Positions 1 to 32,123 of a stretch of 64,000 bases of DNA are shown piece by piece. The stretch is from Paraspadella gotoi (Eukaryota > Animalia > Chaetognatha). A program made the translations under genes and the position numbers. The stretch covers positions 403,305 through 467,304 of the forward strand of contig CM119265.1 of NCBI GenBank assembly GCA_051294375.1, in the 5' to 3' direction. Under the pieces are notes generated by a model that did no database searches, was not told where the DNA came from, and worked only from the letters and a program-made list of their open reading frames with translations. How positions within the stretch are numbered: position 1 is the first letter of the stretch; every line of letters begins with the position of its first letter.

Positions 1-806
1 GCCTTCTAATTGGGAGTTGAAATCCGTGAGAAGCTTGACGGGGTATTTGTCATCGATTGTTTGCGCGTTGAGGCGACGGTAATCGCCACAACAACGCCAA
101 CCTCCGTCCGGCTTCCCTACAACGTGGAGTGGCGACGACCATTCCGATTTACCCCGTTTAGCAATGCCGAGGGAGACCATTTTCTCCAGCTCCCTTTTCG
201 CGACGGCAAGCTTTTCCGGGTCTAAACGGCGTGCTCTCGATTGGCAGGGCCTGCCCTCCGTTGGGATCGAATGCGTTACTCCATGGCGCGGCTCTTTTAA
301 TTCGAAAGTGGGCGTGGAGAGAGACGGAAACGAGTCGAGTAATTTGTAAAATTTCTCCCCCTGCCTGTCGACGAAGTTGACATGGGAAGTAGTCTCTGCT
401 GCTGATGATGCTGCGATCGTCGAATAATCTTTGAGATCCAGTAACAGCCCGTCTCTATGGTTTGGCGCCAAATAATTCTCGGCTAGAAAGTCCGCGCCCA
501 AAATATGCTGCTTCACATCTGCAATGACGAATTCATATTGAAATTGGCGGTTTCCGAGTTGCACTACTCTTTTCGTTGTCCCATAGCAGCCGATTGGCGA
601 GCCGTTGGCCGCTTGAAGGCGAATCTTCGGGTCAGGGCCGCCTTGTCGCTGTGCTGCCGTTGGCGGAACGATCGAAAGAAGGGCTCCCCCATCCACGAGC
701 CACTTCGTGCGGTCTTTGGCGTCGCGGATGTATAGGAGGTCACTCGACGCTGGTGATTGATTCATCTCCTGGGGGACGGCGTTCACCGACGTCGTCCCCC
801 TTTGGA
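1..806 (-). CDS. pol: Pol polyprotein N-terminal part (aspartic protease and start of RT), -1 frame to gag, truncated by window edge
   Basis: Manual translation gives KWLVDGGAL (protease) and ...[20 protein letters not shown]...[36 protein letters not shown] (RT). Confidence 0.88.
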
Positions 807-813
807 GTTTCCC
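771..813 (-). promoter_or_regulatory. -1 ribosomal frameshift signal (G GGA AAC plus downstream GC-rich hairpin)
   Basis: Minus strand GAG GGA AAC, 6-nt spacer, then GGGGGACG...CGTCCCCC stem enclosing the gag stop; same arrangement in E2, E4 and E6. Confidence 0.8.
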
Positions 814-1850
814 TCCTTCTTACGCTGAGTGTCGTTGTACCTGGAGCATCCTGGCTCACAGGACCACGCTTCCTCTCCAAACTTAACGTGTTTGTGGCAA
901 AGCGTCGTCAACTTGGATTTGGTCTTGCCTTTGTGGATCTGGTTGTGCTTCTTTTTGTTGTTGAAGGCCTTCTTGACGTTGGCGCCGACAGCATTGACGG
1001 CGTCGTCGTCCTCTGAATCAGATTCGAGTCGCTCTACGTTGCTGATGAACGTCGTCGATTGGCGAATTTTCACATTGCCTTCATTATCGAAATGCCTGTC
1101 TGCTATTTCGCACAACTCCTTTGCCGACAGGTCGTCCGCTTTCTCCTCGAGTTGACGTCTTATTTCGAGTGGGAGTTCCCTGAGGACCTTCTCTTTCCGG
1201 ACGTCGTCGATTGTCAAAGTTTTTGTCCTCTCTTCGAGCTGAGCTAATAATTTAGACGGTTTTAATCCGTCGGCGTCGAGAGGATCGAGGAGGTTGACGG
1301 CCTGTTGGCGTCGCGTGAGGCCGTACTCCTTGCGGAGATATCCTAAGAAAGCTGACCATGTTGCCTCCGTTGCCTCGCCGTATAGAAACTGGTTAATGCG
1401 AGGATCTACCTTGACGCCAATCTTGGACTCAAGATGAGCAAACTTCGTTTTTGGAGCAGTGATGCCGGCGCGTGTATATGCCGCTTCCACGCGTTTTATC
1501 CAGATTTCGATATTATCCTTGTCGAAATCCGGAAGCTCCGGCTTTCGACTGGATGCCCTTTCGAGGGCGCGCGTGGCGGCGGCTAAAGCGGCGCGAAGTT
1601 CGTCGTTTTCGTCCTGGAGGTCGCGTTGGCTGTTTCCCTCTGACGCCATGTCGGCGTCGACGAAGTTTTCGGCGTTGATTTCTCTGAAGTTGAACGAAGG
1701 AGTAGCGTCAGCGAAGACGGGGGAGGTAGAGCGTGACCTAGCGCCGCGTCCAAAGCCTATAGGGACCTGTAGGCTCGATGCAGCGTTGCCTTGACCTTCA
1801 GCGTTGCGCTGGGCTGATCGTAGGCGGGATCGGACGTCTGAGTCGCTCAT
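783..1850 (-). CDS. gag: Gag protein (355 aa) with CHCC zinc knuckle
   Basis: Intact ORF; KPELPDFD..NIEIWIKRVEA domain; C-terminal CHKHVKFGEEAWSCEPGC fits Cx2Hx9Cx3C, typical of CsRn1-clade Gag. Confidence 0.92.
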   Translation of the reverse strand: MSDSDVRSRLRSAQRNAEGQGNAASSLQVPIGFGRGARSRSTSPVFADATPSFNFREINAENFVDADMASEGNSQRDLQDENDELRAALAAATRALERASSRKPELPDFDKDNIEIWIKRVEAAYTRAGITAPKTKFAHLESKIGVKVDPRINQFLYGEATEATWSAFLGYLRKEYGLTRRQQAVNLLDPLDADGLKPSKLLAQLEERTKTLTIDDVRKEKVLRELPLEIRRQLEEKADDLSAKELCEIADRHFDNEGNVKIRQSTTFISNVERLESDSEDDDAVNAVGANVKKAFNNKKKHNQIHKGKTKSKLTTLCHKHVKFGEEAWSCEPGCSRYNDTQRKKEGNSKGGRRR

Positions 1851-2042
1851 GAGTCGATTCGAAATGCTCGTCGACTAGTGGTGCCGTTTTTTGACTCCGT
1901 GTGGCGGTCGAAAATGCAAGGAAATAATAGGGGTGTGAGCAATTGGATGATTGGCTTAATAACCCCGATTTCCTCACCCAATCTTACCTCAGGGGAGATT
2001 GATTCGCGTTAGACCGCCTGTAGAAGGTTGGTTGCGTTTTAA

Positions 2043-2055
2043 GTCGAGTTCACCA
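2043..2055 (-). promoter_or_regulatory. Primer-binding site, tRNA-Trp-like variant (TGGTGAACTCGAC)
   Basis: TGG begins 2 nt after the LTR CA end on the minus strand; similar to the canonical TGGTGACCCCGAC of E6. Confidence 0.75.
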
Positions 2056-2057
2056 AG

Positions 2058-2755
2058 TGTGGTGAGGCATATGAGTTGAACCACAGCGCGACGACGTTGC
2101 CTTACACACCTTGTGACATATGTGCTGAGCATCATGACGATCTTAGTCTTTTAGCGTTAGACGTTAGATGGCGCAGGGAAAAGTAGGTCACATGATTTGT
2201 AGATTATATTGAAACGTTTATAATTAATATTTGAAGCGAGATTAAATATGAGATTAATATTAAACGTTTGTTTATTAAGATTCGTTGTGAGATTATTAAT
2301 TCGAATGAAGAATAATTAATTGAAGATTAATTTATTTTATTGGATTAATAATTTCACTTGTTGTAAAATCGAGTTCTCATCATTTAATGTACTCAATACA
2401 TTTCGGGATAGATTTAAAACAATGTTTTTTAATGTTGTTTTAACATTATATTAACGAGATCAAAAACAAGAGTAAAATGAATCAGACTTCAATCATTGAA
2501 GTAAACAGTTAATAAAACAAAAGCAGTTGAAATGGCGGTAAGACATCTCTAGTTGAGTTCTATTAATCTAGGAAAAACAAAAGGCTTCGTTCTTGGTTTA
2601 AAGCTTTAAAACAGGTTTTAATCTGGCGATAAAACATGGCCTCTTGGTTGGCTGAGAGGTTAAACTCGAAGCGTCCCAAGCCTGAGTTCGAGGTTCGAAT
2701 CCCGGCTGCTGGATGAATTATTTTCTCACCAGATAATTCGCTCAAGTTGGCCGCA
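2058..2755 (-). repeat. 5' LTR of E1 (family A, ~700 bp)
   Basis: TGTGG...CCGCA termini on +; bounded by the PBS and by ACCCT telomeric repeat; blocks of similarity to the family C LTR (e.g. AAAACAAAAGGCTTCGT, TCGAAGCGTCCCA). Confidence 0.82.
2638..2712 (+). ncRNA. tRNA-like Pol III type-2 promoter module inside the family A LTR
   Basis: A-box TGGCTGAGAGG 2649-2659, B-box GGTTCGAATCC 2692-2702 (43-nt spacing), TTTT at ~2721; cloverleaf incomplete. Confidence 0.7.
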
Positions 2756-2785
2756 ACCCTACTAACCCTTAACCCTAACCCTAAC

Positions 2786-2822
<37 letters not shown>

Positions 2823-2949
2823 CCCTAACCCTAAACCCTATACCCTAACCCTAACCCTTAACCCTAACCTACCCCTAACCCTAACCCTAACCCTAACCCT
2901 AACCCTAACCCTTACACCAACTGCTAACCCTAACCCTTACCCTTAACCC
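2756..2949 (+). repeat. Telomeric (CCCTAA)n spacer
   Basis: Direct reading. Confidence 0.98.
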
Positions 2950-3333
2950 TGTGGCATAAGGCGCTAAGTGGGCGAAGATGACTATCCGTTAACTCTCTAT
3001 TACCTCCCTCTAGCAGACCATGGAACGAGTCCTGGGCTCTTGCGATACAGGCTTGAGGGTTCGCCAACGCCCCCAAGGCCGGCTTACCCGGCCGTCCTCA
3101 CTCTTCCCGCAAGGTCAGCTACCGGCGCTTGTGCATTTGAACCCGGCTGAAACCGGGCCTCCTGGTCCCAACGGTGTTTAGCGACCGTCCCTCCCATTTT
3201 TGACCTGAATTGTGGTCCATGAGCCCGAATCGGCGTCTGTAGCTCAAAATGAGCCACCGGGGTCCACATACTTGAAAAGCAGTTCTATGCTTTATAGGCT
3301 GGGGGTTTGAACCATTGCAATGCCCCGACTACA
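2950..3333 (-). repeat. TRIM 3' LTR
   Basis: Aligns by eye with 3468-3797 apart from an ~60-bp extra segment near 3150-3210; adjacent to the PPT. Confidence 0.8.
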
Positions 3334-3467
3334 TGCCCCCCCAGATTGTCAACCCACCCTGCACTGCTTTCCAGCTGGAGGGAGGGGAGCAATTCGTTCG
3401 CGCACGTCATGGGCCTGATTCAGAAGGTGGGAATACGCATCGACAGGATGCACGGTCTCTCACCAGC

Positions 3468-3797
3468 TGCTGGGAATAAGGCCGGCTAAGTGGGCGCCTT
3501 GAGTTATGACTATTTCCCGTAACTTCTTATATACCCCCTCTATGCAGCACAATGGAACGGCGTTCCTGGGCTTTTGCGAACCAGCGCTGAGGGCTTTCGC
3601 CACGCCCCCAAGGCGGCCTGTACGGCCGTCCTCACCTCTTTCCCGCAGGTAGGTACCGGCGTTGATTGAACCCACCGTAGCCTTAGTGGTCATGAGCTGA
3701 TGCGCTGTTTACTCAATGAGCCACTCGGGTCACACTGAAAGAGGTCATGCTTATACGGCGCGGCACCCTGTGACACCTAGGCAATGCTCGGACTACA
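3468..3797 (-). repeat. TRIM 5' LTR with sense-oriented tRNA-like A/B boxes
   Basis: Minus strand TGGCTCATTGAG (3723-3712) and GGGTTCAATC (3673-3664); adjacent to the PBS. Confidence 0.8.
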
Positions 3798-4212
3798 CCA
3801 CTAACCCTAACCCTACTTACACCGCTAACACCATAACCCTAACCCTAACCCTACTAACCCGTACCCTAACCCTAACCCTCAACCCTAACCCTAACCTAAC
3901 CTACCCTAACCCTAACCCTAACCCTAACCCTTAACACCCTAACCCTACCCTAAACCCTAAACCCTTAGACAAACCACCTAACCCTAAACCCTAACCCGTA
4001 ACCCGACCCTAACCTAACCTACCCTAACCCTAACCCTAACCCTAACCCTGACTAACTCAACCTAACACCTAACCCTACCCTAACCCTAACCCTAACACCT
4101 TAAACCTAACCTAACCCTTAACCCTAACCCTACCTAAACCCTTAACTAACACCTAACCCTAACCCTAAACCCTAACCCTATACCCTACCCACACCTGACT
4201 AACCCTAACCCC
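3798..4212 (+). repeat. Telomeric (CCCTAA)n spacer
   Basis: Direct reading, with many indel errors. Confidence 0.97.
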
Positions 4213-5068
4213 TGTTGGCGCGGCGTGCATATAGTGGAGCCCCAGACTTGACGAAGCACCGCTACGCCGTTAAGTGTAGTGTCACTAGACTCTTACAGAC
4301 ATTCCAAGCCAGATAATTAATGAATGATTAGCTTGGGCCGCAGGGAATCTTTGTGCGCTATTCTGAATGTATATCAGTTTTATTCGCTAGACGGCAGCAG
4401 TAGCAATCAGATGGTCCGTCGTTTAGTCTCTTTCGAATTAGGCACCATTAAGGACGGTTTTAATTTAGCAGTTGAAATTAAACGGAGTTAATGTTAGTTC
4501 GAGCATTAAGAATCTTTGAGACTACTACCGGTTTTTAACACTTCTTTAATTCAGCCGCATCTGAATCATTCTTTCAGAATTAGCAGCATTCTAATTCTTT
4601 AGATTTTATTTCGATTTGATCTTTATTTTCTCATGTTTTTAATGTAGCTATTTACATTTTAGTGAGAGATTAAATATAAAACAATGAGATCAAATCATTA
4701 CGTATTCATGTATTATTTGACATGAACATTAACAAAACCGCAACCTTGCATTTCAGATCTAGAAAACACAAACTCTCAGAGCGATAACACAATCGATTGC
4801 AGCAGCAGCTGGCCGAAATGATTTGGCGTACCGCCCTCCTGACGGAGGAAACCAACTAGTTTTGTAGGAAACAAATAGATGTACATACGCGAATATCTGT
4901 TTTAAATGCTTTAGGTTCGAATTCGAATTCAATTCGATTTTCAGAAGCCAGTTTAGCGCTTGCGCTATAATCGCTGGGCTTCTCGCACTCTTCACGATAC
5001 CAGGATCGCAATCCTAGATCGGTGGCCGCATCTATTTATACAATAGTAGGTCGATCGAAGCATCTTCA
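4213..5068 (-). repeat. 3' LTR of E2 (family B)
   Basis: Direct repeat of 10688-11443, 11560-12309 and 16076-16824; ends ATCTTCA followed by TCCCCC (PPT). Confidence 0.9.
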
Positions 5069-5399
5069 TCCCCCTTGCTGATTAAATATATAATCTTTAT
5101 AATATTTACATTAAAATTTGAAAGTTAATAGAATTAAAATTGTTGTCGCTCCGGTAATGTGCTGTGATTGTGTACAAAATATATAAACCGTATTTCTTAA
5201 CATTGCGGGTAAATCGTAGTTTCATTTCGACGAATTGAAATAAAAAATTGACCTAGATTTCTAGAAATTGACGAAGGTATAAAATCTGTACAAATAAATT
5301 ATTGTAAAATACTGCTAAATTGGGTTTTCCCAAGAATACTTTAATATACAAAAACAACCAAAATATTTATTCTAATAATGGCTTAAGGGAGCTCGGCCG

Positions 5400-8300
5400 T
5401 CGAAGTCAATGCCGAGGGTGCGATGCTGTCATGGAGGCGAGATTTTCAAGCTGACTGGCTTCGACCGGTTGACCTTAAGGCGGCAAAATTATTTGGTTTC
5501 TATTTTCTACTTGGATTTTTCTTTTGCTGTCCCTGCTTGATCAACTCTTTCTGCAGGAACCTCCCAGCGGCGATGCTTAGGGGCGTTCGCGTCGCACGCT
5601 TTGTGACCGCCTTGTTCGAAAAGTTCGTTGGCAGCGTTTGGCTCTCGAGCAATACGCGCTAATAGCGTTGGTGCTTCATCTTTTTGCTCCTCTCGGCTTA
5701 GTTGTGCTTTGTCTGTTGTTCTAACTGATTGTCTCTTTTTCTCTCGCTACGTACTGAACGTTCGTTAGCGTTGGTCAATGTCCATCCGTCATGGCGAGGT
5801 GCGCTGACAGGTACAAGGAAGGGAAGGATGGGTAGCCAAAAAAAACGCGCGGGAAGGAGGGGGGTTGTTGCCGGGGAAGTGGGGGAAGGTTTTGGTGCGC
5901 CTGCCGGTCGGCGGGAAGGATGCGCAGGATGCGACGGAGGAGGAGCGAGGGAGGAGGTAATTGGAGGAGGGCACAGCTGCGCGCGTTGGATTTGCTCTAT
6001 TCGCTGCGGCCGAGGTGAGGTTCTTGACTGTCGGCGCGTGGCTGCCCTGCGTTCTGACGCCAGCTGTGCGGCGGTCTCGCCCTGGCCTTGCTCTCTGGAT
6101 GTCCTCTGCGGCGGGTGTCGACCTCCAACTCGTCGTCACTAATCCATGCCGGTTTTATTCTGGCGATGTTGACGGTTTCCCTTCCCACGTTTGGAACTTC
6201 GATTGTCATATTTAGCCCGTTTCGGCTAATAACGCGGTAAGGACCGTCATAAGGTGGCACCAAGGGGGGGTGTACGCCTGCCTTGCGTACAAACACGTAT
6301 TTTGCAGAGTCGAGATTTGCTGGTAAATGCACCGCGGGCTGTCGGTGGGCGGAAGTAGGCGTGGGCTGGAGTCTGGCGACCTCGATACGCAATTTCGCCA
6401 ATTGATTCTGACGTTGTCGATTTAGAGAGTCGTTGTCGGGTTGAATGTCGCCGAGTAAGCTTCCAGGGACGCTAAGACCTTCGCCGAAGACCAGATCCGC
6501 CGCGGAGGCGCCGATGTCCTCTTTGATTGTCGTTCTAATCGCGAGTAACGTCAATGGCAATTTCCAGTACCATTTCTCTCTCGATTCTTTTGTCAACGCC
6601 ATAATTGACTCTTTGAGCCGTCTGTGAAATCTTTCCACAAGCCCATTTGCTTGTGGATGATATGCGGTAGTTGTCTGATGTTTTATGCCCCAGTTTTTCA
6701 TTAACTGTTGCCATAATGTCGAACAAAACTGACTACCTCGATCTGTGGTTATGACGGCCGGCGTTCNNNNNNNNNNNNNNNNNNNNNNNNNNNNNNNNNN
6801 NNNNNNNNNNNNNNNNNNNNNNNNNNNNNNNNNNNNNNNNNNNNNNNNNNNNNNNNNNNNNNNNNNNNNNNNNNNNNNNNNNNNNNNNNNNNNNNNNNNN
6901 NNNNNNNNNNNNNNNNNNNNNNNNNNNNNNNNNNNNNNNNNNNNNNNNNNNNNNNNNNNNNNNNNNNNNNNNNNNNNNNNNNNNNNNNNNNNNNNNNNNN
7001 NNNNNNNNNNNNNNNNNNNNNNNNNNNNNNNNNNNNNNNNNNNNNNNNNNNNNNNNNNNNNNNNNNNNNNNNNNNNNNNNNNNNNNNNNNNNNNNNNNNN
7101 NNNNNNNNNNNNNNNNNNNNNNNNNNNNNNNNNNNNNNNNNNNNNNNGAATTATGTTAAATATCTTCTTTCGCCATGCAGCTGGGACGAATGGGCGAGCT
7201 GGACCATTAGATATATCCACTAGTAATTCTTGTTCACCCACGCGGATTTTTCTAAATGCAANNNNNNNNNNNNNNNNNNNNNNNNNNNNNNNNNNNNNNN
7301 NNNNNNNNNNNNNNNNNNNNNNNNNNNNNNNNNNNNNNTTTCGAAGTCAATTTCGAAGCTGGTCATAGACGCTATTACAGCGTTGACCTCCTCGAGGCGG
7401 TCAGGCTTGACGCTGCGCTCGAGGTGATTCTCTCGTTGCTCTTCTGATGTGGTTGTTGAGGGTGATGCTTCCTCCGTGGGTGGTTGTGTTTGCGTTATGG
7501 GTGGTGGATTATTTGGTCGTGAGAGGGCGTCGGCCACCACATTGGCCTTTCCTTTCAGATAGCGGATATCTGTGGTGAATTCCGCTATTGCCGACAACTG
7601 GTAGGACTGACGAAGAGTTTGAGGTTCCGTTTTTTTGCGGATTGCCGAGACCAAGCTCTGATGATCCGTATAAATCGTGAACGCACGACCTTCGACCCAG
7701 TGCCGGAAGTGGCGGACTGCCCTGAACGCTCCGAAGAGTTCCTTGTCGAAGGGTGGCCACATTTTTTGATTTTTGGCTAATTTTGCTGAAAAAAACGCTA
7801 GTGGTTCCCACCCTTTGGGACCTCGTTGCTCCAGAACTGCGCCTACAGCTTGATCAGATGCGTCGGTAGTGATGCAAAGCTGCGCGCCGGACCTTGGATG
7901 ATGGAGTAGTGCCGCCGAGATGAGGCCCTCCTTGATGGCCTCGAATGCTTGCTCGCACCCTGGTGTCCAATTCAACGATTTTGGCTTGCCGCTTAAGGCG
8001 TCGTACAGAGCGGCGCAGCGGTGGGCGACTCCTGGAATGAAACGCCTATAATAATTAACCATACCAAGGAAGCGTTGAAGCTCCTTGATAGTGGTTGGGC
8101 GTGTCGTCTCTCGAAGTGTCTGGACGCGTTCAGGTAGTGGTCGGACGCCGTTTTTGTCGACGAGGAATCCCAAGAACTCGAGGGACTCCTGTCCGAGTAG
8201 GCATTTTTTCGTATTTACTACGAGTCCATTTTCATCCAGAGCTTTGAAGACTCTTTCCAGATCTTCCAGGTGCTCCTCCGGAGACGATGATGCGACCAAA

Positions 8301-9385
8301 ATGTCGTCTAAGTAGACGAACGTATGGGGGATCTCACCCAAGATCTCATCCATCAAACGCTGAAAGTCTTGTCCTGCGTTTTTCAAACCGAAAGGACAAC
8401 GAGGAAAGANNNNNNNNNNNNNNNGAGTGATTACAGCCGTCTTTTTTACATCTTGAGGATTTACCGGGATTTGATGATAACCTTTGAGCAAGTCTATCTT
8501 CGAGAAGATAGTCTTGCCCTCCAGTTGCGCGTTGAAGTCCGTTAGTAACTTCACTGGGTAACGATCCTCGACGGTCTGGGCGTTGAGGCGACGGTAGTCG
8601 CCACAACNNNNNNNNNNNNNNNNNNNNNNNNNNNNNNNNNNNNNNNNNNNNNNNNNNNNNNNNNNNNNNNNNNNNNNNNNNNNNNNNNNNNNNNNNNNNN
8701 NNNNNNNNNNNNNNNNNNNNNNNNNNNNNNNNNNNNNNNNNNNNNNNNNNNNNNNNNNNNNNNNNNNNNNNNNNNNNNNNNNNNNNNNNNNNNNNNNNNN
8801 NNNNNNNNNNNNNNNNNNNNNNNNNNNNNNNNNNNNNNNNNNNNNNNNNCTTTGAGTTCGAAAGTAGGAGTGGACAATGAGGGAAACGACTCAAGCAGCT
8901 TGTAATATTTTTCCCCTTTTCTGTCTACGAAATTCACATGAGTTGGCTGCTCCTCCGCTGTCGACGCTGCTAATGGTCGAGTAAGTCCCTTTAGATCTAA
9001 GAGGAGTCGCGTCTCGATGATTTTGGCGCCTAAATAGTTTTGCTGGCCATGAAATCAGCGCCTAGGATATGTTGCTTCACTTCCGCTACGACAAACTGGT
9101 AGTCGAATTTTCGATTTCCAAGTTGAACAGGTGCTTTGGGTATACTAGTGCGCTATAGGCAGTCGGGGATGTTTGAGTTCCGTTGGCTGCTTGCAATTTC
9201 AATGAGCGGTTCTGGGCCATTTTTTCGCTGCTGGGGAGTAGGCGGAATGATAGATAGTAGGGCTCCGCCGTCAATTAGCCACTTAATTCGATTCCCGGCG
9301 TNNNNNNNNNNAAGTAGTTTGTTGGGTGCCGGTGAAGAGTTCGAGGTTAGGGGGACGGCGTTCACCTGCGTCGTACCCCCTTTCC
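5400..9385 (-). CDS. pol: Pol polyprotein of E2 (PR, RT, RNase H, IN), broken by N gaps and indel errors; 3' end approximate
   Basis: WLIDGGAL; [24 protein letters not shown]; [27 protein letters not shown]; [36 protein letters not shown]. Confidence 0.9.
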
Positions 9386-10500
9386 GTTTCCCTCCTTCTT
9401 CTTCTGTGTCTCGTCAAAACGGGAACAACCTGGCTCGCCCAGGGACAACGGGTCACTCCCAAATTTCACATGCTTTGGAGCAAAGAGTTACAACAAGCTT
9501 CGCTTTTCCTTTGTTTTTTGACGCTTGCTGGTTTCGTCGCCTGTTGTTGTTGTTGTTCGACGACTTGCGAGGGCGCTGATCGACCGCGTTGATGGCGTCG
9601 TNNNNNNNNNNGTCGGAGTCGAACTGATCTCGACGACCTTTTTCGATTGCGTTTACTAGAGAAGTCGTTTGGCGGAGCTTCAAATTGCCTTCGACGTCGT
9701 AATGATGATCGGCTAATTTGCATAATTCTTTAGCTGAGATGCTATCCGCTTTCTCCTCTAGTTGTCGTCGTATATCCGTTGGCAGCTCGCGGAGTATTTT
9801 TTCCTTACGTATGTCGTCGACGCTGACGTTGCGCGTTTTTTCCTCNNNNNNNNNNAACATCTTCGATGGTTTAGCGCTGTCGAGGTTTAAAGCGTCGAGA
9901 AGATTGGCGGCTTGCTGCCGCCTCGTGAGGCCGTATTCACTCCTCAGGTAACTGACGAATTGCTCCCAAGCTGCTTCAGACGGTTCTCCAAATAGGTATT
10001 GATTAATCCTTGGATCTACATTTATACCTATTTTAGATTCAAGATGTGCGAATTTAGTCCTTGGATTCGTGATTCCCGCGCGGACGTAAGCAGCCTCGAT
10101 TCTCTTTATCCATACTTCGATATTATTTTGATCGAAGTCCGGAAGCTCCGGTTTCCGGCTTGAAACGCGTTCCAATGCGCGCGTGGCGGCGGCGAGGGCG
10201 GCGCGGAGTTCGTCATTCTCGTCGCGTAGGACTTCTTGCCTTCGGCTGTCAGATTTGGAACTGGTGGTCGGTCCTCCAGTCGCCAGACGGCGTCGTTCTC
10301 GTTCGCGTTGCCTCGTAGTGAACGTGAAGGTCCGGCTCGGGCGTCGAAAAAACGCCGGCGAGATGGAGCGCAGAAACTGTTGCCCTCGGCCAAACCGAAT
10401 GGGACTTGGAGTCTTAATCTCTTCGTTCCGACGATCCTCTGCCGCGGCGCTCGCGTTGAGTCTTGAGCGTAGACGCGAGTTCTAAATCGTATCCGCTCAT
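9362..10500 (-). CDS. gag: Gag of E2 (frame-broken in the assembly)
   Basis: ORF 9453-10175 is homologous to E1 Gag (KPELPDFD..NIEVWIKRIEA); inferred ATG at 10500, stop at 9362; GGGAAAC slippery site 9386-9392. Confidence 0.85.
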
Positions 10501-10687
10501 CGAGGTCTTTTTCTCCGTCGAATCCGTTTAGAAGTGGGAGAAAAAGGGAAAAAAACGTGTTGAGAAGATTGGGAGACTACTCACTTAATCCCGAAATTTC
10601 CAAACCCAATCTCACCTCAGAGAAGGTATTTTCCGCTGGCGTTACTCCCCTTCGTTCGTTGGAATTGTTCTCAGTCGTTCTCACCAT

Positions 10688-11443: not shown

Positions 11444-11559
11444 ACCCAAACCCTAACCGCTAACCCTAACCCTAACCCTAACCCTAACCGCTAACCCGTC
11501 TACCCTGAACCCTAACCCTAAACCCTAACGCGCTAACCCTAACTCCTAACCCTAAGCCC
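11444..11559 (+). repeat. Telomeric (CCCTAA)n spacer
   Basis: Direct reading. Confidence 0.97.
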
Positions 11560-21905: not shown

Positions 21906-23061
21906 GTTTCCCACCTCCTTTCTTCTTTCTTTGGGGTCGATCGAAATTCGCGCAGCGCCGGATGCGTCTGCCGACGACCCACGCGTCTTCTCCGAATTTA
22001 ATTGTGCTTCGAAAGCACAATGCGTGAGTTTGCTTTGCTCCTCACTTTTCTGGTTTGGAAGAGGTCGTCGCGTTTGTCGCCTTGTTTTCCCGTTGAGCGG
22101 GCTATCGATTGCAGTTGACGGTCTCATGTCCTCCAACATCGCATGTCGAATTGTTCCCTTCGTTCTTGTAGACGTGGCTGATACAGAGAGATTGACGTTT
22201 GTTTATATTTTAAGATTCCCGTCCCTTGTCATAGTAACGATATCGGCGATCTGGCAAAGCTGATGGGCAGTGTACGTGTCGAGTTTCGTCTCGTCAGTTG
22301 CTCCGGCTTCGATCTTGTGTATCGTAGTTCGCAGCCATATATTTTTTCTTTTCACGTCAAGTCTAGGCTTAGGGTTTATTGTTTTAGTTTTCGCTTCACG
22401 CCAGCTGGCTCAGCATCTTTTGATTGGCTTCGAGCGTCTGACATCGAGAAGGCGTCGAGGAGGTTGTCAGCTTTGTCGTCGACGAGTCTAAGACCGCTAT
22501 TTCATTCGGAGGTACTCGATTAAACTGGGACCTAAGTTGTCACTCCGTGCCTCGCCAAACAAAATAACTTGGTTGATGGTTGGAGGTCGAGGCGCTAATG
22601 TGTATCTGTACGCTTGGATTCAAATGAGGCAATTTGTTGCGCGGTGCGAGTGATGCCGGCTCGCTAGTGTGGCGATTCGACGATTCCGACTCTTTTGATC
22701 AGATCTCAATGTTATTTAACAATCGAAATCTGGCAGTTCTGCGTTTTCGATTATTGAGGCACGATTCTAGGGGCTGCGCGTAGGCGGCGGCGAAGGGCGG
22801 CGCGGAGCCATCGTCTTTCGTCTGTAAATCTCAGTGGGAGAGCCGCGCCTTGAAGTCGCTGCTGTGCCATGCCGACTGTGCGTTCTCTGTTCGACTGAAA
22901 GTGATCCGGCGTCGCCGTCAGCGTAAGGCCGCGTGATGTGAGTCGTGAGCCGACTGGTCCTCTGCCAAACCCGCCTGGGTGCTGAAAGTAGTCGGTTGGC
23001 GTCGTCGGCTTCTCTTGAGACTGAACAGGAAGTCTTTGCGCGTGTTTTCGGGCCCACTCAT
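21878..23061 (-). pseudogene. gag: gag of E4, heavily frame-broken (probably sequencing error)
   Basis: Nucleotide collinearity with E5 gag; inferred MSG start; GGGAAAC and hairpin at the 3' end. Confidence 0.7.
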
Positions 23062-23834
23062 GTGATTCGAATTTGTCCCAGTCGTGTCACCAGGGGGTAA
23101 GCGTGGAGAAGAGGAAAGAAAAAGGGACGAGCGTGAGCGGATTGGGGTAATCAGCCTAATCCGAATTCCTTCCTCGGCCCCAATCTCACCTCAAAGAGTC
23201 TTTTCCCTGGCAGGTGTCCCCCTGCTTGAGTTTGCAAGGCTTGTTTCAATTATAACGAGTCTCTTGTTGTTTCACCATGTGTGAGATCTGACACAGAGAC
23301 ACTGCAAAGCGGATGTCAGCAGGATGCGTCAGTAGACATACAGCCCGAGGCAATCCTTTGAAGTCTTTGTCGCGAGCATTGTCGATTATGCAATGATGGT
23401 GCGAGTCTATTGAGAGAACGGAGACCAGTGGAAATGACCGAGCAGCAATCACGGTTTGCATGGGAGAACGTGCACCGATGAATAAATGCTTTTTTGTGTG
23501 TTATTTATACATTCGAAGTATTTAATTAGATTGAGAAGAGATAATTAAGTATTCAAAATACAGAGTCAAGAGTCCATTATCATGTCATAATATGAAGTGA
23601 ATGAGGACACTCTAACTTAAATAAGAGGAGTCAATCTTACTTTATTTAAATAGTTCGTATACAGTACAAATGATAGGTCATATGTATTTGCATCTCTCAC
23701 TTTCAATTATAATAATGTTATTTATTATCATGTATATGATGAGATTAAGTAAAAATATCTCTACAGATATCTTTGACTGTTTTTACCTGAGGAGTAGAGA
23801 CATATTACANNNNNNNNNNNNNNNNNNNNNNNNN

Positions 23835-26048
23835 TCTTCGAGAAGATCGTCTTGCCTTCGAGCTGCGCGTTGAAATCAGATAACAGTTTTACCGGATAGC
23901 GATCATCGACGGTTTGGGCGTTGAGGCGGCGATAATCGCCGNNNNNNNNNNACCCGCCGTCCGGCTTTGATACGACATGGAGCGGAGAAGACCATTCAGA
24001 TTTGCCACGTTTGGCCACCCCAAGGGCGACCATCTTCTCCAGCTCGCGTTTTGCGACGGCAAGCTTTTCAGGGTCGAGTCGACGGGCTCGTGCTTGGCAG
24101 GGCCGTCCCTCCGTCGGTATGGAGTGAGTTANNNNNNNNNNNNNNNNNNNNNNNNNNNNNNNNNNNNNNNNNNNNNNNNNNNNNNNNNNNNNNNNNNNNN
24201 NNNNNNNNNNNNNNNNNNNNNNNNNNNNNNNNNNNNNNNNNNNNNNNNNNNNNNNNNNNNNNNNNNNNNNNNNNNNNNNNNNNNNNNNNNNNNNNNNNNN
24301 NNNNNNNNNNNNNNNNNNNNNNNNNNNNNNNNNNNNNNNNNNNNNNNNNNNNNNNNNNNNNNNNNNNNNNNNNNNNNNNNNNNNNNNNNNNNNNNNNNNN
24401 NNNNNNNNNNNNNNNNNNNNNNNNNNNNNNNNNNNNNNNNNNNNNNNNTCCCGTAGCAAGCGATAGCTGACCCGTTTGCCGCTTGTAGCTTCATGTTTAG
24501 ATTTGGGCCTTGATCGCGCTGTTGTTTTGTAGGCGGGACAATTGACNNNNNNNNNNCTCCGTCGATTAGCCACCTCGTTCGATCCCCGGCGTCTCTGATG
24601 TAGATAAGGTCGCTTGACGCCGGTGATTTAGTAGNNNNNNNNNNNNNNNNNNNNNNNNNNNNNNNNNNNNNNNNNNNNNNNNNNNNNNNNNNNNNNNNNN
24701 NNNNNNNNNNNNNNNNNNNNNNNNNNNNNNNNNNNNNNNNNNNNNNNNNNNNNNNNNNNNNNNNNNNNNNNNNNNNNNNNNNNNNNNNNNNNNNNNNNNN
24801 NNNNNNNNNNNNNNNNNNNNNNNNNNNNNNNNNNNNNNNNNNNNNNNNNNNNNNNNNNNNNNNNNNNNNNNNNNNNNNNNNNNNNNNNNNNNNNNNNNNN
24901 NNNNNNNNNNNNNNNNNNNNNNNNNNNNNNNNNNNNNNNNNNNNNNNNNNNNNNNNNNNNNNNNNNNNNNNNNNNNNNNNNNNNNNNNNNNNNNNNNNNN
25001 NNNNNNNNNNNNNNCGGTGACGTCGTCGGCTTTGTCTTCCAGTTGTCGCCTGATCTCGATTGGTAGTTCGCGCATTATCTTTTCTTTTCGGACGTCGTCT
25101 AGGCTTAGAGTTTTAGTTCGCTCCTCCAGCTGGGCCAGCATTTTTGATGGCTTGACGGCGTCGACATCGAGAGCGTCGAGGAGAGTTGCAGCTTGTCGTC
25201 GACGAGTTAGACNNNNNNNNNNNNNNNNNNNNNNNNNNNNNNNNNNNNNNNNNNNNNNNNNNNNNNNNNNNNNNNNNNNNNNNNNNNNNNNNNNNNNNNN
25301 NNNNNNNNNNNNNNNNNNNNNNNNNNNNNNNNNNNNNNNNNNNNNNNNNNNNNNNNNNNNNNNNNNNNNNNNNNNNNNNNNNNNNNNNNNNNNNNNNNNN
25401 NNNNNNNNNNNNNNNNNNNNNNNNNNNNNNNNNNNNNNNNNNNNNNNNNNNNNNNTGTTATTAACATCGAAATCTGGCAGATCTGGTTTTCGATTCGAGG
25501 CACGTTCTAGGGCGCGCGTGGCGGCAGCAAGGGCGGCGCGGAGCTCATCGTTTTCGTCTTGTAAATCTCGTGGAGGCGCGCCTGAAGCTGCCGCTGCTGC
25601 CATGCCGACGTGTGCGTTCTCCGTCGACTGAAAAGTGAATTCTGGCGTCGCGTCAGCGAAGGNNNNNNNNNNNNNNNNNNNNNNNNNNNNNNNNNNNNNN
25701 NNNNNNNNNNNNNNNNNNNNNNNNNNNNNNNNNNNNNNNNNNNNNNNNNNNNNNNNNNNNNNNNNNNNNNNNNNNNNNNNNNNNNNNNNNNNNNNNNNNN
25801 NNNNNNNNNNNNNNNNNNNNNNNNNNNNNNNNNNNNNNNNNNNNNNNNNNNNNNNNNNNNNNNNNNNNNNNNNNNNNNNNNNNNNNNNNNNNNNNNNNNN
25901 NNNNNNNNNNNNNNNNNNNNTAATCAGCTAATCCCGAATTCCCTCGCCCAATCTCACCTCGGAAGAAGTTCTTTTCCGCTGGGTCCCCTTGTCTTGAAGG
26001 TTGGCTTTTCTTTCGTCGTCGGTTTCACCATGTGTGGCACTGACACAG
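23835..26048 (-). mobile_element. Partial family C copy E5 (LTR edge, PBS, gag, PR, RT start), mostly N
   Basis: ORF 24566-25603 is Gag-like and ORF 23761-24573 encodes an RT N-terminus; PBS TGGTGAAACCGAC 26018-26030; near-identical to E4 21040-23295. Confidence 0.8.
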
Positions 26049-26504
26049 NNNNNNNNNNAGGTACAAAGGCTACATGCCCCCCAGATAAAATTCGGGGACA
26101 TTCGTTATTTTATCTAAAAATTAATACATTTTGCCTTTGTATAAAGTATTTAAACGGTAAAATGGGACTTTTCGTTTAAGTGTGGGTTAAATTGTAACAT
26201 TTAACCTATAAATTCATCGAGATATTGTAAAATAGATAATTAAATACTTCGAAAAGTATTTATCGAAACAATTGTAAAGGTAACGGAGGGGAAACGAATT
26301 AAAATTAATTCGTTAACGGTAAGTTGAATAATTAACAGTTGTAAAGATGATTCTTTGCTGTTCTTACAGCATGGTACAATTGAGTTGACGATTTCGACGG
26401 TAATAATCACGTAACGGAACGATTTGACAGAAATCGTTAAAGTTTTGAAAATACAAGTTTAAAAAGAGGTGAATTAGAATAAAGTTTGTAAAAGACTGAC
26501 CCGT

Positions 26505-26920
26505 TCACGAGTTTGTTGACGATGGATCCTCATTGTTTATTTGTTGCAAATAATGAGCGAGGACTGCAGCGTAAGAACGGCCTGTTGGGTTGACGCTCGA
26601 AATTTGGCGCCTCGAGGCGCGGTAAGAGAAATCTTCTGGCGTTGGCCTTGAGAAGAATGAGGGGCGAGTGGGGGGAGGGGAGACGGGATCAGGTTCAGCA
26701 TTCGTTGGCGTCGACGTTGACGTCTCGATCGGATCTTTGGCGTCGTCGTTATTATCGTCGTCGGCTTTGTTTACTTTATTGTTTACTTTTTCCCTCGATT
26801 TGTTTATATTTGTGTTTAATGGGGGGAAATCGAGATTTGAAAGCGGATTTAAGGTCGTTGGTGGTCGAACGTCGTCTGGGGATGGGAGAGGAAGGTTCTG
26901 TGGAGGGGGGGGGGAGGGGG
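26505..26920 (-). CDS. Probable continuation of the integrase C-terminal tail in a shifted frame
   Basis: ORF 26505-27128 overlaps the pol end and crosses long G homopolymers (26904-26922) where an indel is likely; reads as a Pro/acidic linker ending FFSRPTPEDFSYR...GRSYAAVLAHYL. Confidence 0.45.
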
Positions 26921-29900
26921 GGAGGAGAGGAGGAGGAGAAAGGAGGAGGAGGAGGAGGAGAAAACGTGGTTGAATCATTTCGCCTCGCATTTGATCGTAG
27001 CGTTCGAGTCGATGGAGCTGGGTGACGAGTTCTGACGCCGGGGCGACGGCCCGGCGGAGGAGGCGACGGAGGCGGCGATGGCGTGCGTGGCGGAGAGGCG
27101 TTGCCGGAAATGGCGTCGTCGGCTTCATAAGCGGGTTTTAAGCGGGAAATCGACACGTTTTCGTTGCCTCGACCTGGGATCGCGATTCTGAACGTTAGTT
27201 GATCACGAGATATGACGCGATACGGACCCAGGTAAGGCGCTGATAATGACGAGGCCACGCCCCCGCGTCGAACGAATACGTGGGAGGCGTGGCTTAGAGC
27301 GTTAGGGAGGTGGATTTGAGGTTGACGGTGAGTCGTTGTCGGGGCTGGCTGGAGGCGCGATACTTCTAGTTGAAGGTTAGCGAGCGTACGACGCCGCTGT
27401 TGACGTTCGGCGGCGTCACTTCCGGTTTGAGTCGATAAAAGGTCTCCGGGTACTGCAATTGCTTCGCCGTAGACCAAATCTGCTGGCGAGGCGCCTACGT
27501 CGGGTTTAAGCGTCGTTCGAATGGCTAACAGGGCGCAGGGGAGGCGCCAGTACCAATCTCCTCGAGTATCAGCGCCTAGAGCTATTAGTGCTTCTTTTAA
27601 TCGGCGATGAAATCGCTCGACTAATCCGTTAGATTGGGGGTGATAAGCTGTTGTGAGATTGTGAGTAATTCCCCATGAGGCTAGAAGTTGTCGCCAAGTT
27701 GATGAGAGGAATTGAGAGCCTCGATCCGTTGTGATGGTGGCCGGGACGCCGAATGAGGCTATCCAGCCATGGACGAGAGCATCGGCGACGGTTTTGGCTG
27801 CTATATCCTTCATTGGGATGGCGGCGGGCCATCGCGTAAATCTGTCGACTACAGTGAGGATATAGTTGAAGCCGTTGGAGAGGGGTAAAGTCACAATGTC
27901 TACGTGGATATGATTAAAGCGACGTTCTGGGAGCTCGAAGGTGCCGATTTCCGGGATTGTATTCCGCGTCACCTTCGCCCGTTGACAGTCTTGGCACTCT
28001 CGTGCCCACTTCGAGACGTCGGCTCTCATTGATGGCCAAACGAATTTTTCTGAGATCGTTTGTCGCGTCCGTTCGACTCCAGGGTGGCCGAGATTGTGGA
28101 TAGTCTCGAAGATGCGGCGGCGCCACGCAAAAGGAACGAAGGGGCGTGGCGGGCCGTTGCTGACGTCGGCGATGATCGTAGTAGTGCCGAGTGGGATTTG
28201 GCGAAATCTCAATCCAGATGTCGAGTCGCTCGTGATGCGCTGGAACTCGGCGTCGAGTGGTTGATCGGTCGCCATCTTTTCGATGTCGATGCCGTGCTGA
28301 AGGATCGAGTGGACGATTTGATCGAGGTGTTGACGTTTCTCTTCCGGGACTTCTTTTGATATTGAAGCGACAATCGGGGGAGGTGAGGGAGCGGGGGCAG
28401 AGAAAGAAGGGAAGAGAGGTTGTGGAGTGGGTGAGGGAGGGGGAGAGGAGGGAAGGGGAATTTGTTCCGGTTCCTTCTCGGCGTTAGGTCGGGAGAGGGA
28501 GTCGGCGACGACGTTGGCCTTCCCTGCCAAATATTGTATGTCGGTTGTATACTCCGCGATACCTGCTAATTGGTAGGTTTGTCTCGCTGTGTGTGGTTCA
28601 GTTTTTTTGGCGAGAGCGGGAATTAATGATTTATGGTCAGTGAAAAGTGTAAATTGGCGGCCTTCAATCATCATTTTAAAATGTCGAATTGCTCGCCAAG
28701 CGGCGAGCAGCTCGCGATCAAAGGGTGGCCACATTTGCTGGTTTTTTTGTAATTTTGCCGAGAAAAAGGCCAAGGGTTCCCAACCCTTCGGCCCTTTTTG
28801 TTCCAGCACCGCTCCAATTGCTGTGTTCGACGCGTCAGATGTAATTGCCAATGAGGCGCCGGGACGTGGGTGGCACAACATTGTGGCTTGTGCTAATGCG
28901 TTTTTAATGGCCTCGAAAGATTTTTGGCATTCGAGAGTCCAGTTCAATATGCGTGGCCTCGATTTCGACTTAAGGGCCTCGAATAATGGGTATAAGTGGT
29001 GCGCTGACCTCGGGATAAAGCGCCTGTAGTAGTTGACGAGGCCTAAGAATCTTTGTAACTCCTTAATGGATGTTGGAGGCGTTGTTTTGTTTATGACGGC
29101 GACTCTGTCCGGTAATGGCGAGATGCCGTTGGCGTCGACTCGATATCCAAGGAACTCGAGTTCTGATTTACCTAGAACGCACTTCTGTCTATTGACGACG
29201 AGTCCATTCTGGTGAAGCGTCTCGAACACTTGACGGAGGTGCTGCTCATGTTCGGCGTGGGTCTCGGAGGCGACCAAGATGTCGTCGATATATACGAAGA
29301 CGAACGGCAGGCCATCCAGGATTTCGTCCATCAGGCGTTGAAAATCCTGACCTGCGTTCTTGAGTCCGAATGGCGTGCGCGGGAAGACGTATAGTCCAAA
29401 AGGCGTGATGACGCCCGTTTTGGCGACGTCTTCTTCCGCCACGGGTATTTGATGATACCCTTTCAAGAGATCAATTTTGCTGAACACCTTTTTTCCGCTG
29501 AGGTTGGCGTTGAAGTCATTTAGAGTCTTGACAGGGTATTTGTCATCGATAGTAGCGTTATTAAGTCGTCTAAAGTCTCCACAAACTCTGTATCCTCCAT
29601 CGGGCTTGTTCACGACGAGGAGAGGCGACGCCCACTCACTTTTAGCGCGGCGAGCGATGCCGAGGTCGCAGAGTTTGTCTAGTTCTTTTTTAGCCACCTC
29701 TAATTTGTCGGGGGCTAGACGACGGGCTCTTGACTGCACTGGCCGGCCTGTTGTTGGTATATAGTGCTTGACTCCATGTTTGGGCTCGGTTGGCTGAAAA
29801 GAGGGTGTGCAAAGGTTGTGATAAGCGTCAAGAAGTTTATAGTATGGATCATCAGCTTGGTGTAAAAAATTTACTCGAATGGGTTTTTGTTTGTTTGCCT

Positions 29901-30303
29901 TAAACGCTGGGATTGTGCTGAAATCATTCAGGTCAAATAAAAAACCATCACGATGGTTAGGGGCCAGATAATGTTCGGCCAGGAAATCTGAGCCGAGTAT
30001 AGGTTGAGTGACGTCCGCTATGGTTACCACGAAGGGAAATTTTCGCCTTCCAAGACGGACCTGGACGTCTCGATAACCATAGCAGGAAATGGGGGAGCCA
30101 TTGGCGGCTTTGAGTTTGGTTTGAGATTCTCCTTTTTTCCTCTCCTCTCTCGTTGGGGGAACAATGGAGACCGTCGCTCCGCCGTCGACGAGCCACTGCA
30201 GCTTGTTGGCGGCGTCATAGACGAAAAGGAGTGAATCTGTTGTATTGGTAGATTGGCCGGTCGGGATGTAATTCACCTCCTCCCGCCGGCCTTCCCGTTT
30301 TCC
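26776..30303 (-). CDS. pol: Pol polyprotein (PR-RT-RNase H-IN), intact, expressed by -1 frameshift
   Basis: 1198-aa open frame; WLVDGGA, YIDD, DASN, HNLGHPG..CQDC, DDE core, GPY/F module, Pro-rich extension. Confidence 0.96.
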   Translation of the reverse strand, partial: GKREGRREEVNYIPTGQSTNTTDSLLFVYDAANKLQWLVDGGATVSIVPPTREERKKGESQTKLKAANGSPISCYGYRDVQVRLGRRKFPFVVTIADVTQPILGSDFLAEHYLAPNHRDGFLFDLNDFSTIPAFKANKQKPIRVNFLHQADDPYYKLLDAYHNLCTPSFQPTEPKHGVKHYIPTTGRPVQSRARRLAPDKLEVAKKELDKLCDLGIARRAKSEWASPLLVVNKPDGGYRVCGDFRRLNNATIDDKYPVKTLNDFNANLSGKKVFSKIDLLKGYHQIPVAEEDVAKTGVITPFGLYVFPRTPFGLKNAGQDFQRLMDEILDGLPFVFVYIDDILVASETHAEHEQHLRQVFETLHQNGLVVNRQKCVLGKSELEFLGYRVDANGISPLPDRVAVINKTTPPTSIKELQRFLGLVNYYRRFIPRSAHHLYPLFEALKSKSRPRILNWTLECQKSFEAIKNALAQATMLCHPRPGASLAITSDASNTAIGAVLEQKGPKGWEPLAFFSAKLQKNQQMWPPFDRELLAAWRAIRHFKMMIEGRQFTLFTDHKSLIPALAKKTEPHTARQTYQLAGIAEYTTDIQYLAGKANVVADSLSRPNAEKEPEQIPLPSSPPPSPTPQPLFPSFSAPAPSPPPIVASISKEVPEEKRQHLDQIVHSILQHGIDIEKMATDQPLDAEFQRITSDSTSGLRFRQIPLGTTTIIADVSNGPPRPFVPFAWRRRIFETIHNLGHPGVERTRQTISEKFVWPSMRADVSKWARECQDCQRAKVTRNTIPEIGTFELPERRFNHIHVDIVTLPLSNGFNYILTVVDRFTRWPAAIPMKDIAAKTVADALVHGWIASFGVPATITTDRGSQFLSSTWRQLLASWGITHNLTTAYHPQSNGLVERFHRRLKEALIALGADTRGDWYWRLPCALLAIRTTLKPDVGASPADLVYGEAIAVPGDLLSTQTGSDAAERQQRRRTLANLQLEVSRLQPAPTTTHRQPQIHLPNALSHASHVFVRRGGVASSLSAPYLGPYRVISRDQLTFRIAIPGRGNENVSISRLKPAYEADDAISGNASPPRTPSPPPSPPPPGRRPGVRTRHPAPSTRTLRSNARRNDSTTFSPPPPPPFSSSSPPPLPPPSTEPSSPIPRRRSTTNDLKSAFKSRFPPIKHKYKQIEGKSKQ
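30255..30303 (-). promoter_or_regulatory. -1 frameshift signal (G GAA AAC plus hairpin)
   Basis: pol is in the -1 frame; GGAAAAC, 5-nt spacer, GGCCGG-CGGGA...TCCCG-A-CCGGCC stem. Confidence 0.75.
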
Positions 30304-31355
30304 GATTGATACTTGTAACAGCCAACTTCGCATTTTTTGGCTGAATCGCCATATTTTTTGTGGTAGAAACAAATATCTACCCGAGATGTTTTCGACTGAG
30401 AGGGTTGATGGTTTCCTGTCGATTTGTCGGCGTTGAATGGGCGGCGGAAGGAGTTGTTTGGGCGACGAGGTGGTTGAGATGGGCGCTGTCGATTGACGGC
30501 GTTGACGTCATCCGTTATCGGCGGCTCATCCGCCATTAATGGCGTGATTGGCGTGCCGACGGCGTAAGCTGCTGCTGTTGCTGTGGGATGGAGGAGTTTG
30601 CCGTCGCGGTCGAAATACGCGTCAGCGAACTTGGCGGCGGTTTCGGCGTCGACAGTCTCGACTCTTTCAGCGAGGCTACGTTGGATTTCTGTAGGTAGTT
30701 CCCTTAAGAGAAGTTCCTTCATTATATCGTCGACGCTTACTTTGCCGGCCTTCTCCTTCATCACTGCAAGGAGTTGGGATGGGCGTCGATTTTCTCGACG
30801 GGTCCCGTCGATAAGTGACGCCGCTTGCTGAGATCGAGTACGACCATATTCTGCTCTTAAATATTCGAGGAAAGAGGACCAGCGAGTGTCGGAGGCTTCA
30901 CCGAATAAATAGGCGTTTATGCGAGGATTGTAATCCACTGGGAATTTGTCCTCCATATGGGCAAACTTCTCTTTGGGCGTTGTAGTTCCAGCGCGCGTGT
31001 AGGCGGCCTCGACGCGCTGAATCCATAGTTCCACGTTATCGGGATCGAAATCTGGCAATTTCGGCTTTTTAATCGCCAATCCTTGAAGTGATGCTGCGAG
31101 TGTGGTCGCTAGAGTGCGGACGAGCTCTGCCTGGGGATCGGGAGCGGCCGCCATCTCGTTGGACCCGGTCGGCGACGTTGGGAATTGGAAATTCGTTTGA
31201 GTAGCGAGAAAAGCCGGAGATCGTCTCCCGCGGCCGAATCCGATGCCGGAAGGAGGGACGAGTTGATTGGGACGCTCGTGAGGCTGTAGAGGGGCGTCGG
31301 CGTCGCCGTTGGAGAGCGCTGAGCGGGCCCGGGTGCCACCGGCGGGTCCGCTCAT
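30273..31355 (-). CDS. gag: Gag protein (360 aa) with CHCC knuckle
   Basis: Intact ORF; KLPDFDPDNVELWIQRVEA; CFYHKKYGDSAKKCEVGC. Confidence 0.94.
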   Translation of the reverse strand: MSGPAGGTRARSALSNGDADAPLQPHERPNQLVPPSGIGFGRGRRSPAFLATQTNFQFPTSPTGSNEMAAAPDPQAELVRTLATTLAASLQGLAIKKPKLPDFDPDNVELWIQRVEAAYTRAGTTTPKEKFAHMEDKFPVDYNPRINAYLFGEASDTRWSSFLEYLRAEYGRTRSQQAASLIDGTRRENRRPSQLLAVMKEKAGKVSVDDIMKELLLRELPTEIQRSLAERVETVDAETAAKFADAYFDRDGKLLHPTATAAAYAVGTPITPLMADEPPITDDVNAVNRQRPSQPPRRPNNSFRRPFNADKSTGNHQPSQSKTSRVDICFYHKKYGDSAKKCEVGCYKYQSENGKAGGRR

Positions 31356-31681
31356 TCGTCGTGTGGTTGATGAGGTTGGTCACGTGAAAAGCGAAAGAGA
31401 ATGATGGTGAGAGATAGGCAAGGCTATCACAGCTTCCTCATCTCGACTTGCCTACCTGAGGAGGTGCTTTATTCCGCTTGAATGTGTTGGCCCGATTCGA
31501 TTTGCTTGATTTGCTTCTTTTTCTGTTCTTGACGTTAGTTTTGATTAGATTGATTAGGCTATTTCATTGTAGAGTAAGTTCTAAGGCTTTTAAACCGAGC
31601 AGTATTTAAGTGTATAAAGACATTGATGAATAAAATCAGTTTGTAGATAGGTTTTCAGAAGGTTTTGTTTTAAGTTCTTTA

Positions 31682-31694
31682 GTCGGGGTCACCA
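31682..31694 (-). promoter_or_regulatory. Primer-binding site complementary to the tRNA-Trp 3' end
   Basis: + strand GTCGGGGTCACCA equals the 3' end of metazoan tRNA-Trp including CCA; 2 nt from the LTR. Confidence 0.9.
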
Positions 31695-31696
31695 GT

Positions 31697-32123
31697 TGTA
31701 GATATTAGACATCCTGGCACCGAGAGGATTAAAACAGGAATTGAATAAGATCGAATTATCTCCCATTAACGTCAGTTAAAAACCGTCTGCTTATATTTAC
31801 TGAGCCATCTAGGTAAGTAGTAACGAGGACGGCCGACTTGGTAACTATTATAAACAAAAGGCCGTCTGAAATAAGAAGGAAATAATTATTCCAGGTTTTG
31901 GGCGTTTTCGAGTAAAAAGTGCCCGATAGCATAATCGGTAAGACGGCGGCTTGTGGCTCTCAAGGTTGCTGGTTCGAATCCGGTTATTGCACTTCTATTT
32001 ATAATCATAATTATATAAGGGAGATTTAAATAAGTGATTTATCGATGTGAAGAATTATAAATAAGTAATTCGATCATGATTAAAATTAATATAAATTATT
32101 TGGTGCCAGGTACAAAGGCTACA
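31697..32123 (-). repeat. 5' LTR of E6 (family D, 427 bp)
   Basis: Perfect TGTAG...CTACA termini; followed by ACCCTAA. Confidence 0.92.
31917..31994 (+). ncRNA. tRNA-like Pol III module inside the family D LTR
   Basis: A-box TAGCATAATCGG 31927-31938; B-box GGTTCGAATCC 31971-31981 in a GCTGG/CCGGT T-stem; AAGTGC/GCACTT closing stem; TTGTGGC loop resembling tRNA-His. Confidence 0.75.

Follow-up and report, generated by a model that had tools for sequence, protein, structure and literature searches.

In a 64,000-nucleotide stretch of the Paraspadella gotoi genome (contig CM119265.1, positions 403,305 to 467,304; hereafter, the window), CsRn1-like Ty3/gypsy long terminal repeat (LTR) retrotransposons of four families, A to D, and an apparently dependent terminal-repeat retrotransposon in miniature (TRIM) are joined to (TTAGGG)n telomeric repeats at one register. 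The elements' own integrase likely made these joints, and telomeric DNA is likely its intended target. A preliminary description of the window had listed nine outer LTR ends touching the telomeric repeat; all nine exist, and every visible outer LTR end in the window (9/9) adjoins CCCTAA repeats.

From left to right, the array consists of C (5′ half), the TRIM, B, B′, D, D′ and A (Table 1). Spacers of CCCTAA repeat, 194, 415, 116 and 115 bp long, separate the first five of these, gaps lie on both sides of D′, and A is followed by a 10-kb CCCTAA tract and then by AT-rich subtelomere. The gag and pol genes of all families lie on the minus (G-rich) strand, and the elements are arranged head-to-tail. 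Judged from strand polarity, a chromosome end would be located beyond coordinate 1, and the array may be terminal. The order of protease (PR), then reverse transcriptase (RT), RNase H (RH) and integrase (IN), the TG...CA LTRs, the primer binding site (PBS) and the polypurine tract (PPT) are those of Ty3/gypsy LTR retrotransposons. Family A is clean: its pol contains RT, RNase H, H2C2 and an integrase core, its integrase has intact DDE core, H2C2 and GPY motifs, and the best PDB match of its pol is the Ty3 Gag-Pol (E 4e-108). In A, B, C and D alike, pol is overlapped by gag in the −1 frame, and a slippery-type site is present. Pol pieces of B, C and D are 65-88% identical to each other at the amino acid level and 52-70% identical to A; for gag, identity is 55% between B and C and 37-39% between A and B or C. 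Strand, anatomy and these identities bear out the earlier distinction of four families plus a TRIM lying head-to-tail.

The best-fitting phase of the left junctions is TAACCC|TG in 4/4 cases (one tied), and that of the right junctions is CA|ACCCTA in 4/5 (one tied; the TRIM is noisy). The left and right registers are offset by 4 modulo 6, which implies a 4-bp ACCC/GGGT duplication; we infer this duplication, which is not directly visible within a repeat. Between the LTRs and the PBS or PPT there are one or two bases that are absent at the target junctions. Unprocessed cDNA ends would carry these bases, and their loss is a mark of integrase end processing. The implied duplication has the length of the target-site duplication (TSD) of CsRn1-like elements (4 bp; PMC2582038, accessible part). 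At least five distinct LTR termini, each requiring a separate insertion event, are present.

Both junction registers share a one-base match with the repeat. One can therefore envisage that linear cDNA was end-joined onto eroded chromosome ends and capped by telomerase, each element being appended at the tip and the spacers being telomere added between captures. CA|GGG is the register expected from telomerase acting on a 3′ A, and such captures would account for short spacers beside a 10-kb proximal tract and for the uniform polarity in the window. End-joining, however, should leave ragged proximal junctions, whereas the two ends of the elements stop precisely at TG...CA in all families, having neither lost bases nor gained filler, and the integrase motifs are intact. 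We consider end capture quite improbable and return to insertion by integrase.

Family A was found in nine runs (six samples, three studies), one of which may be the source of the window. Flanks were surveyed in 4/9 runs for A, at 24 of 165 loose ends, and in 4/9 runs for the LTR of C, at 24 of 29. In data sets X1 and X5, one 426-nt contig makes up the A LTR and its ends are exact; in X1, its depth is 571 compared with about 246 in the element interior, and in X5 telomeric repeat in the same register is present at the A LTR end that falls in a gap of the window. The C LTR is present in contigs of four runs, and in all four the contig is continuous over the inner LTR end, leaving no long unique flank to branch off at that point. 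At the C outer end, six of six target-side records with readable letters are telomeric (X5, X6 and X8), and an additional record is the purine tract of the element itself. Five telomeric C-type records are in the ACCC register; they come from C itself and from a sister family that has 4-9 differences, a terminus unlike that of B or D, and no copy in the window. The X8 record has the opposite orientation and begins with GGGT, i.e., the same 4-bp site on the other strand. In X1, two records agree with six telomeric letters, their continuation beyond these not being visible. Overall, 7/7 readable target-side flanks in contigs of A and C-type elements are telomeric. For the A and C LTRs surveyed, public contigs from this organism match what the window shows.

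The same data bear on the possibility that insertion is broad or heterochromatin-general (Ty5-like) and that copies survive or accumulate in telomeric tracts by selection and recombination between chromosome ends. A tblastn search of the window with 10 gag/pol fragments gave no matches beyond position 32200, and the earlier statement that the 22-kb subtelomere contains no gag/pol copy stands to that extent, but LTR-related noncoding DNA does occur there (Table 1). These relics, the small number of independent events sampled and the lack of target preference among described CsRn1 members (PMC2582038, in the part available) favor broad insertion. Yet the subtelomere, which is repeat-rich, gave no gag/pol match over 22 kb, the C LTR shows no branch into unique DNA, the readable flanks are uniformly telomeric, and all of the termini counted above would need to have shared one fate. 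Broad insertion is thus unlikely.

Several points weigh against targeted insertion by integrase. The register alone leaves room for end-joining followed by telomerase, given the single matching base at both junctions, and any integrase could prefer one register of a 6-bp repeat, so the register does not amount to proof of sequence recognition. The seven flank rows correspond to about four distinct junction types rather than to seven independent events; the same insertion may recur across runs, and copy numbers may be low, with few independent events sampled. The letters read cover 24 of the 165 A loose ends and 24 of the 29 C loose ends, and outside the window the survey covers the A and C LTRs. 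Telomeric contigs may also have been lost to assemblers and to the human-sequence filter. TRIM-LTR-like DNA and a cassette-like relic have non-telomeric flanks in the subtelomere. Finally, the integrase tail motif considered below is common to 88/120 relatives whose target is undescribed.

The quality of the assembly also has to be considered. Differences between B and B′, between D and D′, within LTR pairs and between the copies of a 5-kb subtelomeric duplicate are mostly gaps, and among the variant units of the CCCTAA tract a one-base deletion is the most frequent (205 versus 570 perfect units). We read this gap-dominated noise as raw long-read fill; the copy number and order of the array are therefore uncertain, and some of B′ and D′ may be redundant. 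The two LTRs of D align over only ~100 bp, and the D 5′ end and the D′/A junction fall in N gaps. If noisy-read gap filling had created the junctions too, the noise, the likely redundant copies, the 5-kb duplicate and the 17 N gaps inside 1-26.1 kb would be of a piece with them. However, all four spacers are N-free, and the same junctions are found again in contigs that were assembled separately from other samples and from a second study. For the junctions, an artefact is thus largely refuted and, in our view, very improbable; the order of the array is a separate matter.

Some local features may be recorded here. At 12759-13129, a D-like 3′ region is directly fused to a B-family RT, which may represent a recombinant or deleted element or a chimeric read. 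The sequence at 12647-12658, just ahead of an N gap, resembles the opening of a long-read sequencing adapter, as would fit raw read fill. The 5-kb direct duplicate (42317-47586 versus 47687-52784, over a 100-N gap) is 92% identical and is likely assembly redundancy; an additional inverted copy of this DNA is found at 52311-54609 / 55206-57472. Two non-telomeric islands in the 10-kb tract (32850-33100 and 36500-36810), unmatched elsewhere in the window, may be parts of reads of poor quality or places where reads were joined. An AT-rich repeat with a GACG/GTCC microsatellite is dispersed in both orientations (45560-45810, 52870-53270, 56530-56980 and 60100-61290); it is reminiscent of Helitron-associated DINE/HINE elements.

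Members of the CsRn1 clade combine a CHCC gag knuckle, a TGGTGA-type PBS, a GPY motif, overlapping gag/pol and a 4-bp TSD (PMC2582038, PMC3630058, as far as their accessible text goes). By these features, the families described here were compared with CsRn1, PwRn1, AgCR1-14 and CsRn1_Cv1 and share the set to the following extent, with the overlap of gag and pol in all four and the 4-bp TSD implied by the register offset. The CX2HX9CX3C (CHCC) motif is present in the gag of A, C and 57/59 gag relatives and is not found in the B open reading frame (ORF) as assembled, the GPY motif is found in the integrases of A and B, and the PBS starts with TGGTG/TGGTGA in all, with internal differences among B, C, D and the TRIM. 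The PBS of A may match tRNA-Trp, the primer tRNA of the CsRn1 clade. The families differ from the clade by their telomeric-repeat sites in one register and by tRNA-like LTR cassettes.

Among 7984 proteins scored, 1369 pol relatives were found at E ≤ 1e-50, the best 120 of them, all ENA entries, being mostly 58-67% identical. In a tree of the first 40 of these 120 proteins and 7 loci, A and B are inside a 100/100 clade with 43 relatives. A is not united with B-D in any of three free trees; a gag tree constrained to unite A with B-D was 20 log-likelihood units higher (p-AU 0.82). Judging by these sequences, a single origin of A with B-D is possible. Of the integrase-based, telomere-specialised lineage proposed in the preliminary description, integrase-type insertion stood (fixed 4-bp register, trimmed ends, telomeric contig flanks), but one lineage of A and B-D was not recovered in free trees, and the TRIM may not be exclusive to telomeric repeats. 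Fifteen metagenome loci of relatives yielded no outer LTR-target junction, viral and prokaryote collections yielded no relatives, and a chromodomain or other accessory Pfam domain is absent in 33/33 pols. A cluster member labelled as coming from a bacterial metagenome-assembled genome (P0161) is likely eukaryotic contamination of that bin. Loose ends near 31672, 1960-1993 and 2074-2094 belong to contigs of more related families that share PBS, 5′ untranslated region or LTR-end pieces; members beyond those of the window are thus present in the organism.

Catalysis by integrase and active targeting are what we infer from these observations. Integrase would join the trimmed TG...CA ends to a target whose strands it cuts with a 4-bp stagger (G strand, TTA^GGG; C strand, CCCTA^ACCC). 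The catalytic core would select the register, and targeting would be supplied by the long disordered integrase tail, which may bind telomeric DNA or a telomere protein; we regard this as the most likely, if conjectural, route. The tail is long and proline-rich, and A and 88/120 relatives contain PGR[RPK]P, which we take to be AT-hook-like. In A, a second conserved terminal motif is encoded by an ORF of its own (26505-27137); the interruption lies within a GGA repeat, at which contigs are broken as well. An [FY]xLxP pattern of the TRF-binding type was present in 1/120 tails and was rejected.

Each autonomous LTR carries a tRNA-like cassette antisense to the element. Two exact copies of the canonical B box are found in the window, one in the C LTR and one in the A LTR, both close to the 5′ end of the LTR, and related cassettes are present in the LTRs of B and D. 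Antisense tRNA-like stretches were seen by eye in LTRs of two marine metagenome relatives, L006 (445-1222) and L012 (3024-3476); this suggests that the cassette is a clade-wide trait. Rfam returned no matches and ARAGORN with default settings no tRNA genes; 37 hits of relaxed ARAGORN were rejected as noise. The TRIM (848 bp, noncoding, with two LTRs, PBS and PPT) has the size and structure of Helenus, and both an A box (TRGCY) and a B box (GGTTC) are read in the sense direction in its 5′ LTR. Helenus TRIMs are below 1 kb, have tRNA-like A/B boxes in the LTR, a PBS, a PPT and, in animals, a 4-bp TSD, and are mobilised by Gypsy (Kojima 2024, PMC10886601, accessible text). The TRIM described here shares the size, LTR boxes, PBS and PPT. 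The string "telomer" is absent from the main text of that paper, whereas this TRIM lies in telomeric repeats, and here autonomous LTRs also bear the cassette, in antisense. The subtelomeric TRIM-like and cassette-like DNA may represent host SINE-like cassette sources or old insertions.

Compared with the 10-kb tract, the spacers are improbably short (four uniform draws all below 415 bp, p about 3e-6, calculated by hand), which means either that insertions are clustered or that the spacers become shorter afterwards. Speculatively, the cassette could draw the next insertion near an existing copy, yielding spacers of 115-415 bp; we hold this source of clustering to be rather unlikely.

Table 1. 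Features of the window (positions as in the window; strand where assigned).
Feature	Position	Strand	Details
Family C element, 5′ half	1-2755	−	PR-RT start 1-819; gag with CHCC knuckle 783-1874; PBS ~2044-2055; 5′ LTR 2058-2755
tRNA-like cassette in C LTR	2638-2713	+	antisense to element; canonical B box at 2692
CCCTAA spacer	2756-2949	+	194 bp
TRIM, Helenus-like	2950-3797	−	3′ LTR 2950-3333; PPT 3334-3342; internal part 134 bp with PBS; 5′ LTR 3468-3797 with sense tRNA-like A/B boxes
CCCTAA spacer	3798-4212	+	415 bp
Family B element	4213-11443	−	3′ LTR 4213-5068; gapped pol; gag 9453-10481; 5′ LTR 10688-11443
CCCTAA spacer	11444-11559	+	116 bp
B′	11560-16824	−	two noisy B-family pieces either side of a 100-N gap; D-like 3′ fragment 12759-13129; may be partly redundant
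CCCTAA spacer	16825-16939	+	115 bp
Family D element	16940-23809	−	3′ LTR 16940-17590; IN, RH, RT; gag noisy; 5′ LTR a poor match, running into gap
tRNA-like cassette in D 3′ LTR	~17470-17546		
D′	23835-26048	−	gapped second D-family fragment set, extending to where its 5′ LTR starts; perhaps redundant
Family A element	26060-32123	−	3′ LTR remnant and PPT 26060-26082; pol PR-RT-RH-IN 26776-30507; gag 30273-31379; PBS 31682-31694; 5′ LTR 31697-32123
tRNA-like cassette in A 5′ LTR	31920-31992		antisense to element
CCCTAA tract	32124-42284	+	10 kb, noisy, proximal to array
Cassette resembling those of C/D LTRs	42725-42840	−	z 7-12; non-telomeric flanks; LTR relic or host SINE
TRIM-LTR-like body	44197-44452	+	outside repeats; duplicated near 49.5-49.9 kb
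TRIM terminus match, 19/20 nt	44572-44590	−	outside repeats; duplicated near 49.5-49.9 kb

The telomere-targeting elements in the literature, in the parts accessible to us, are SART/TRAS, GilM/GilT, Zepp, MoTeR, Tx1-1_ACar, FoTeR, HeT-A/TART/TAHRE and Ty5 (PMC10088271, PMC4700185, PMC12857005, PMC12471100, PMC2678813, PMC5381345). The first six of these form oriented arrays inside the telomeric repeat, and FoTeR and MoTeR are non-LTR elements that use target-primed reverse transcription (PMC10088271, PMC12857005). The families described here share the niche of SART/TRAS, MoTeR and similar elements but have LTRs, PBS/PPT and a DDE integrase; the LTRs and integrase also set them apart from telomere-specific non-LTR and Penelope-like elements. 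The remaining invaders of the telomeric repeat (SART/TRAS, GilM/GilT, Zepp and Tx1-1_ACar) are, like FoTeR and MoTeR, non-LTR and target-primed. Ty5 of Saccharomyces is a Copia-type element; Sir4 tethers it to the silent chromatin found close to mating loci and telomeres, and not to the repeat itself (PMC4700185, accessible part). Like Ty5, the present families are LTR elements with an integrase that is likely directed to telomeric regions; unlike this chromatin-tethered element, they are Ty3/gypsy and sit in the repeat itself. In the literature available, LTR targeting is tethering to chromatin or Pol III factors, and telomere-repeat-specific retroelements are of non-LTR types. The earlier remark that no described equivalent was known to its author agrees with the openly readable telomere-targeting literature, where only non-LTR invaders and no LTR element specific for the telomeric repeat were found (Repbase, GyDB and subscription journals lie outside this search), and the accessible lamprey and chaetognath papers describe no telomeric LTR insertion.

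The array may, with a somewhat less than even chance, represent a Ty3/gypsy branch whose integrase recognises (TTAGGG)n, with at least five families, a TRIM parasite and Pol III cassettes seeding tandem arrays, perhaps widespread among hundreds of marine relatives sharing the tail motif; it would be among LTR elements what TRAS/SART are among non-LTR ones, with an integrase addressed by nature to telomeres. Since elements of this kind are hidden in telomere tracts, most assemblies would overlook them. If true, an integrase confined to one TTAGGG register would be a new solution to the telomere-repeat niche, a tractable case of DDE integrases gaining specificity and a candidate safe-harbour integration enzyme, as well as a factor in the structure and length of the telomeres of this genome.

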